Positions 13,099 to 13,155 of a stretch of DNA of 20,350 nucleotides are shown here, one piece after another. Location of the stretch: the NCBI RefSeq assembly GCF_003334335.1, contig NZ_QOWQ01000052.1; one strand, 5' to 3'. The first letter of the stretch is position 1; each line of letters opens with the position of its first letter. The notes beneath the pieces were generated by a model that was not told where the DNA came from, ran no database searches, and saw only the letters and a list, made by a program, of their open reading frames with translations. The position numbers were made by a program, and so were the translations under genes. The stretch comes from Escherichia coli (GTDB taxonomy: Bacteria; Pseudomonadota; Gammaproteobacteria; Enterobacterales; Enterobacteriaceae).

Positions 13099-13115
13099 TT
13101 GGAAAATTTTTCCAA
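13099..13115. promoter_or_regulatory. AllR operator-like palindrome upstream of gcl
   Basis: TTGGAAAA-T-TTTTCCAA: perfect 8-bp arms around one central base, 21-37 bp upstream of the gcl ATG; a near-identical copy lies at 14649-14665. Confidence 0.75.
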
Positions 13116-13130
13116 CTTTCAAATTTTGTC

Positions 13131-13155
13131 AAAAAAACCCGCTCCGCAGAGCGGG
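13131..13155 (-). terminator. rho-independent terminator after allR
   Basis: On the minus strand: stem CCCGCTC / GAGCGGG (13138-13155) with a 4-nt loop, followed by T7 (13131-13137), 13 bp after the allR stop. Confidence 0.8.

Follow-up and report, generated by a model that had tools for sequence, protein, structure and literature searches.

The window analysed here, a stretch of Escherichia coli DNA of 20,350 nucleotides, contains the K-12-type allS-allA-allR-gcl cluster. Around the site discussed below, 2 kb of sequence match many E. coli RefSeq chromosomes at 100% identity, with allS, allA, allR and gcl annotated there, and the K-12 derivative XL1-Blue likewise matches at 100%. Two genes frame the junction that concerns us, both on the minus strand. 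The first, allR (13168..13983), was assigned from its ORF and the RefSeq annotation and encodes a 271-aa protein of the IclR family, the repressor of the AllR box. The second, gcl (11297..13078; 593 aa), is annotated as such in the identical RefSeq genomes and has its ATG at 13078..13076; the mechanically derived ORF 11297..13168 is the gcl frame extended upstream. In MG1655 (NC_000913.3) allR occupies 533,011-533,826, and a window position w converts to a genome position g by g = 533826 + (13168 - w), with U00096.2 coordinates being 776 lower than those of NC_000913.3. This conversion was validated by three independent values for the transcription start site (TSS) of the small RNA AllZ, which coincide once converted. 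Read along the minus strand, the junction runs TAA (the allR stop, 13170..13168), TGTCTGTCGCAT, CCCGCTC-TGCG-GAGCGGG, TTTTTTTGACA, AAATTTGAAAG, TTGGAAAAATTTTCCAA, TAAATAGAGGTAGGAATAAA and finally ATG.

The central element of the junction is the AllR operator, or AllR box, TTGGAAAA-T-TTTTCCAA at 13099..13115, which has no strand: it is both an exact match to the motif and a perfect inverted repeat, the arms at 13099-13106 and 13108-13115 being 8 nt each, 100% complementary and 1 nt apart. In the gcl sense it reads TTGGAAAAATTTTCCAA and lies 21-37 nt upstream of the gcl ATG, whose A is at 13078 on the minus strand; the initial annotation had described a perfect dyad at this distance from the gene, and every coordinate it gave was verified. 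Compared with the AllR consensus (KTTGGAAWAWTWTTCCAAC / TTGGAAAANTTTTCCAA), the box is exact at 17/17 positions; of its flanks, the upstream G fits the K of the motif, while the downstream base is T and the motif has C. A whole-window scan for TTGGAAAANTTTTCCAA with up to three mismatches returned two matches against 0.26 expected, the one at 13099-13115 being exact. The dyad by itself is not very rare, given that three perfect 8+8 dyads occur in the window against 0.65 in shuffles, and a lone TTGACA hexamer is unremarkable by chance. The significance of the box therefore comes from its match to the AllR consensus, its location and its conservation in 22/22 species.

The published record on AllR agrees with this assignment. 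The motif is given as KTTGGAAWAWTWTTCCAAC and credited to Rintoul 2002 (PMC8222616). Binding of AllR to the gcl promoter has been published, with glyoxylate lowering it and allantoin acting as corepressor, and the allS-allA spacer is also bound (PMC12535856; PMC11323563). An IPOD-HR preprint reports that the AllR site in front of gcl is occupied in vivo and that AllR binds at three loci only. Furthermore, an AllR-repressed lux reporter described in a 2026 paper (PMC13300388) was built on an 82-bp PCR fragment that, judging by its primers, spans 13167..13086. As this fragment suffices as an AllR-repressed promoter, the gcl promoter and operator lie inside it, and nothing upstream of the terminator is needed. 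The proposed identity of the dyad as an AllR box is thus borne out by its fit to the published motif, by the published binding of AllR to the gcl promoter and by the reported in vivo occupancy. The box at gcl is the already-characterised AllR operator of gclp, and as such it is known, textbook biology. The AllR footprint and the mapping of the gcl TSS are reportedly to be found in Rintoul 2002, Hasegawa 2008, Walker 2006 and Cusa 1999. Site, sequence, gene context and motif are all the same as in the gclp AllR operator of E. coli K-12 (Rintoul 2002; Walker 2006; Hasegawa 2008), from which our site does not differ; what is new is the comparative argument on the -10 element and the overlap with the AllZ terminator, both set out below.

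A related operator offers a useful point of comparison. IclR, a paralogue of AllR within the IclR family, likewise has glyoxylate as its releasing ligand, and its operator at aceBAK (Pan et al. 1996, cited in PMC8222616) also overlaps the promoter and is an A/T-rich TGGAAA...TTTCCA palindrome; on the other hand, the protein, the regulon and the central bases of the palindrome are different. One may ask whether IclR recognises the gcl dyad in addition to AllR or in its place, since the two consensus sequences (TGGAAATNATTTCCA for IclR) are very similar and both proteins respond to glyoxylate. Indeed, the 15-nt core TGGAAAAATTTTCCA agrees with the IclR consensus, as given in PMC8222616, at 12/14 specified positions. 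We nevertheless consider such recognition very improbable: the literature credits repression of gcl to AllR, the box occurs together with allR immediately upstream in 22/22 species, and the exact spacing and the centre of the dyad fit the AllR motif and not that of IclR. According to one paper, RutR also has a site upstream of the gcl operon; a search with the RutR box TTGACCANNTGGTCAA, allowing up to three mismatches, gave no match near gcl.

The window contains a second AllR box, TTGGAATATTTTTCCAA (14649..14665, no strand), with one mismatch, at the centre of the 229-bp divergent spacer between allS and allA. The centre of this box (14657) and that of the spacer (14658) nearly coincide, and the box lies about 106-124 nt from the start codons on both sides. 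Like the gcl box it is a 17-bp dyad, with one central mismatch, and is bound by the same regulator; unlike the gcl box it sits in the middle of a divergent spacer and adjoins no terminator. A weak TSS in the allA direction (U00096.2 531614, window 14604) lies about 53 nt from its centre. At gcl itself we also considered a tandem second AllR site, which was rejected: the best candidate, at 13117-13133, has five mismatches, 6.6 such matches are expected per window, and it is not clearly conserved. Elsewhere in the window, a perfect palindrome made up of A and T only, TAAAAATATTATTTTTA, occupies 9427-9443 in the non-coding gap between the ORFs 7907-9361 and 9530-10408, which by gene order are probably ybbW/allW and glxR.

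Upstream of the gcl box, in the direction of transcription, lies the intrinsic terminator of allR. Hairpin scanning and folding identified the stem-loop CCCGCTC-TGCG-GAGCGGG at 13138..13155 on the minus strand, which starts 12 nt past the allR stop and consists of a 7-bp stem (six G-C pairs) and a 4-nt loop, followed by a run of seven T's (13131..13137, minus strand). Folding of the hairpin-containing stretch gives -18.8 kcal/mol (z = -3.6), a value reached by 0/200 shuffles. A G+C-rich hairpin with a T-run thus follows the stop codon, and an RNA 3' end has been mapped within that run, as is characteristic of an intrinsic terminator. The mapped end is that of AllZ, a small RNA (13131..13365, minus strand; published as NC_000913.3 533,629-533,863) that is transcribed from its own promoter inside allR. 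Its published 3' end, 533,863, corresponds to window position 13131, which closes the T-run and is at the same time base 2 of the gcl -35 element. It follows that the hairpin and the U-tail are common to the allR mRNA and to AllZ, an assignment that for the T-run rests on the sequence together with the published end.

AllZ is an Hfq-associated RNA whose start was placed at 533631/533632 in two further datasets and which was verified by northern blot (PMC8175672 Table 2B, Supplementary Table 6). Its authors concluded that it has an independent promoter and reported grcA, ftsZ and bssR as RIL-seq partners (PMC8175672). Several lines of evidence point to the same start. A Cappable-seq TSS in the sense direction lies inside allR at U00096.2 532856, that is, window position 13362, with a score of 409.9, while the other plus-strand TSSs of that table between U00096.2 532189 and 532964 score 1.6-44. 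An RpoS-holoenzyme SELEX peak at U00096.2 532860 coincides with the AllZ TSS, and a -10 hexamer CTATAC at 13375..13370 is correctly spaced from it. This -10, which falls in the codons GGC TAT ACC, is kept in Escherichia; at the same position some Citrobacter, Superficieibacter and Buttiauxella have a TATATC-like sequence, and in Klebsiella and Raoultella (CTACAG) it is lost. AllZ belongs to the 3'-end-derived small RNAs with an internal promoter, and its 3' module is the terminator half of the junction, not the AllR box. MicL and DapZ, which are type I 3'UTR small RNAs, are comparable. The function of AllZ is barely characterised, and an Rfam search of 12900-14900 gave no meaningful match. About 90 nt upstream of the AllZ TSS, at 13448-13463 and within allR (codons LQTGLQ), there is a perfect 16-bp palindrome, TGCAAACCGGTTTGCA, whose half-sites resemble operators of the LacI/PurR family. 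We rejected it as a functional site, as it is not conserved in other species, not even in E. whittamii, and is probably due to chance.

Transcription of the repressor gene itself can be followed in the same data. Two Cappable-seq TSSs on the minus strand, at windows 14011 and 14029 (U00096.2 532207 and 532189; scores 44 and 27), lie in the allA-allR spacer and precede the allR ATG by 28 and 46 nt, respectively; allR therefore has a promoter of its own, active where gcl is silent. For gcl, the Cappable-seq table lists no plus-strand TSS in U00096.2 532964-5333xx; as it was obtained in M9-glucose and hence under repressing conditions, it is uninformative about the position of the start. The allR and AllZ TSSs are seen in the very same M9-glucose data in which the gcl promoter is silent, and this silence is consistent with tight repression. 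A strong TSS does exist upstream of the terminator, where a gcl start would, according to the initial annotation, refute its operator reading, namely the one at 13362, but this start belongs to AllZ and not to gcl.

Among the elements of the gcl promoter itself, the -35 is represented by a TTGACA hexamer, 6/6 to the consensus, at 13127..13132 on the minus strand and inside the 82-bp reporter fragment; it shares its leading pair of T's with the end of the terminator T-run (13137..13131). The merging of the run into TTGACA at 13127-13132, noted in the initial annotation, was verified in the sequence. For the -10, on the other hand, no good hexamer exists at 17 ± 1 nt from TTGACA, and a consensus scan pairs nothing with it; the earlier statement that no convincing -10 lies at this spacing is thereby confirmed. 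Among hexamers that start 15-18 nt from TTGACA, A at position 2 is combined with T at position 6 only in AAAAAT, AAAATT, AAATTT and AATTTT, found at 13111..13103, with spacers of 15, 16, 17 and 18 nt, respectively. The last three agree with the consensus at 2-3/6 positions only. AAAAAT agrees at 4/6 and is preceded by TG, which would make TGg+AAAAAT a candidate -10 of the extended type. By consensus all four candidates are weak.

The sole match of the sigma-70 consensus scan is a different pair, TTTCCA-17-TAAAAT (13105..13077), which agrees at 9/12 positions and has the top position weight matrix (PWM) score in E. coli. As the real gcl promoter it has practically no probability in our view, and it was rejected: its -10 overlaps the ATG, which would put the 5' end of the transcript within the coding sequence and preclude translation of Gcl, and that same -10 falls outside the functional 82-bp fragment. 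Moreover, a single match of this quality is fewer than the 1.8 expected by chance.

We therefore turn to what comparison between species can say. A protein scan with AllR, taking one genome per species, gave 21 further loci that also carry gcl, so that 22 sequences were compared; they range from Escherichia to Providencia, with AllR identities of 66-100%. In all 22 species gcl directly follows allR and an AllR box is present, and the upstream sequences, when anchored on the box, align without any gap. The terminator hairpin occurs in the same place in 22/22 species, and since the stem sequence differs in Buttiauxella, Atlantibacter and Providencia, its conservation is one of structure and not of sequence alone; at least five T's of the T-run are invariant. 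From the 3' arm of the terminator to the box the distance is exactly 22 nt in 22/22 species, even though the intervening bases vary. Within the box, a single C-to-T change is the sole difference in the outer 6+6 bases (positions 1-6 and 12-17), while the centre (positions 7-11) varies, and the box is more conserved than its non-coding flanks. Among five diverse E. coli sequences it differs only at the central positions 8-9. Two of three divergent E. coli genomes sampled, WEM25 and MS21324, carry gcl as an annotated pseudogene (frameshifted; internal stop), and in both the promoter, the operator and the terminator are intact. An enterobacterial allR-gcl locus is also present in a record titled Chryseobacterium sp. 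18061, with an AllR 86% identical to that of E. coli and an allR-gcl spacer that differs from that of Citrobacter sp. 18056 at a few positions only; this record is probably mislabelled or contaminated.

Around this rigid core the remaining elements behave differently. The hexamer equivalent to the -35, formed by the final pair of T's in the run and the next four nucleotides, begins with TTG in 17/22 species and is separated from the box by 10-11 nt in every case; four species (TTAGGC, TTAGAC) have a poor version of it, as does a fifth (TTCACA). Downstream, eight box-to-ATG distances, from 12 to 27 nt, occur among the 22 species. The Shine-Dalgarno region of gcl, GAGGTAGGA at 13084..13092 on the minus strand, was recognised by a conserved GAGG/AAGG, which starts 6-7 nt past the box in 16/22 species. 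More generally, the first Shine-Dalgarno-like motif follows the box after 3 nt in Providencia, after 6-8 nt in 17 species (E. coli among them) and after 10-15 nt in the other four.

These distances carry the argument for the position of the -10. A rigid distance from the T-run and -35 to the box, combined with a variable distance from the box to the ATG, points to a -10 inside the box. Likewise, if the -10 followed the box, the Shine-Dalgarno motif would not be transcribed in most species, which again favours a position within the box, and in Providencia, with its Shine-Dalgarno motif 3 nt and its ATG 12 nt past the box, a downstream -10 is impossible. From the spacing to TTGACA and the position of the Shine-Dalgarno motif we infer that the gcl -10 lies within the AllR box, in the region 13103..13114 on the minus strand. 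Standard -10-to-TSS geometry would then predict a start at 13096..13099 on the minus strand (NC_000913.3 533895-533898) and a leader of 18-21 nt.

A simple PWM applied to the 22 species favours no single promoter register, and our argument is therefore based on the spacing and on where the Shine-Dalgarno motif lies. In a different register, TTGAAA (13122..13117) would serve as the -35 and TAAATA (13098..13093) as the -10, separated by an 18-nt spacer consisting of a G and the whole box; transcription would start near 13085-13087 (NC_000913.3 533,907-533,909), and AllR, bound in the spacer, would still act by occlusion. TTGAAA agrees with the consensus at 5/6 positions, a semi-conserved TTYAAR closely precedes the box (positions -7..-2), and both elements lie within the 82-bp reporter fragment. 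In Klebsiella and Raoultella, furthermore, the best PWM score goes to the corresponding pair TTCAAG-18-TATAGT, whose -10 stands directly past the box. However, TAAATA lacks the critical T at position 6, and the resulting E. coli leader would be just 8-9 nt long, starting past the conserved GAGG, while the Klebsiella transcript would have no Shine-Dalgarno motif at all. There is also no room for this arrangement in Providencia, where the end of the box is 12 nt from the ATG, and the combination of a fixed hairpin-to-box distance of 22 nt with a variable box-to-ATG distance is left unexplained by it. On balance we regard this register as unlikely.

In most of the 22 species a semi-conserved TTYAAAG element abuts the AllR box (positions -7..-1; minus-strand 13116-13122 in the window). 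It resembles the TTCCAA half-site with one change and is 18 nt away from that half-site. The element could be an accessory AllR contact, the -35 of the alternative register or a mere A/T-rich spacer.

Taken together, the junction between allR and gcl is very probably a compact arrangement in which the AllR operator covers the -10 and the TSS of gcl and repression works by promoter occlusion. The elements, the identity of the locus, its conservation and the fixed spacing were observed directly, AllZ and the binding and effectors of AllR are taken from the literature, and the -10 and TSS follow from the geometry described above. In the direction of gcl, the order would be the terminator of allR and AllZ, the -35 TTGACA, the AllR operator 11 nt later, the Shine-Dalgarno motif and the ATG, with the -10 inside the operator and the TSS at its downstream edge. 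AllR bound to the dyad would physically exclude RNA polymerase; glyoxylate would free AllR and open the promoter, and allantoin would strengthen repression. Occlusion had already been proposed in the initial annotation, and the comparison of 22 species lends it support in that it would place the -10 and TSS in or onto the box.

The proximity of the terminator raises the question of whether AllR could also act on transcripts arriving from upstream. As a roadblock located 15 nt past the T-run, it might stop read-through from allR and AllZ or help to terminate it, besides or instead of occluding the promoter, and induction of gcl would then in part be relief of the block. In favour of this are a sense TSS of high score (409.9) located 231 nt before the T-run ends, a box that starts 15 nt past the mapped AllZ 3' end and the same 22-nt hairpin-to-box distance in 22/22 species. 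Yet the hairpin and its T7 run form a strong canonical terminator, and the 82-bp fragment, which lacks the AllZ promoter, is already controlled by AllR. In addition, conservation of the AllZ -10 is limited to Escherichia and some Citrobacter, but the terminator-to-box spacing is kept throughout the 22 species, and that fixed spacing is more simply explained by -35/-10 geometry. A roadblock is thus quite unlikely in our assessment. A more elaborate idea, which we also hold to be improbable, is that the box is at once the operator and an extended -10 (TGgAAAAAT), and that the fixed 22-nt spacing marks a coupled module in which AllR also affects termination or read-through of allR and AllZ. If this were true, a single protein-DNA complex would jointly regulate the 3' end of the repressor mRNA, the tail of a small RNA and the target promoter.

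Promoter occlusion by AllR at gcl thus remains our preferred reading, and we should be clear about what it contributes. To the extent that a known operator was rediscovered correctly, our analysis adds little. Its modest value lies in a comparative argument that would put a previously unrecognised -10 inside the operator, with a TSS predicted to within 4 nt. There is also a practical side for glyoxylate or allantoin biosensors based on Pgcl, as trimming away the "terminator" takes the -35 with it. Also of modest value is the finding that a stretch of about 57 bp encodes the 3' end of an mRNA and of the Hfq-associated small RNA AllZ, a -35 element and an operator; this overlap of three functions constrains the evolution of the junction.
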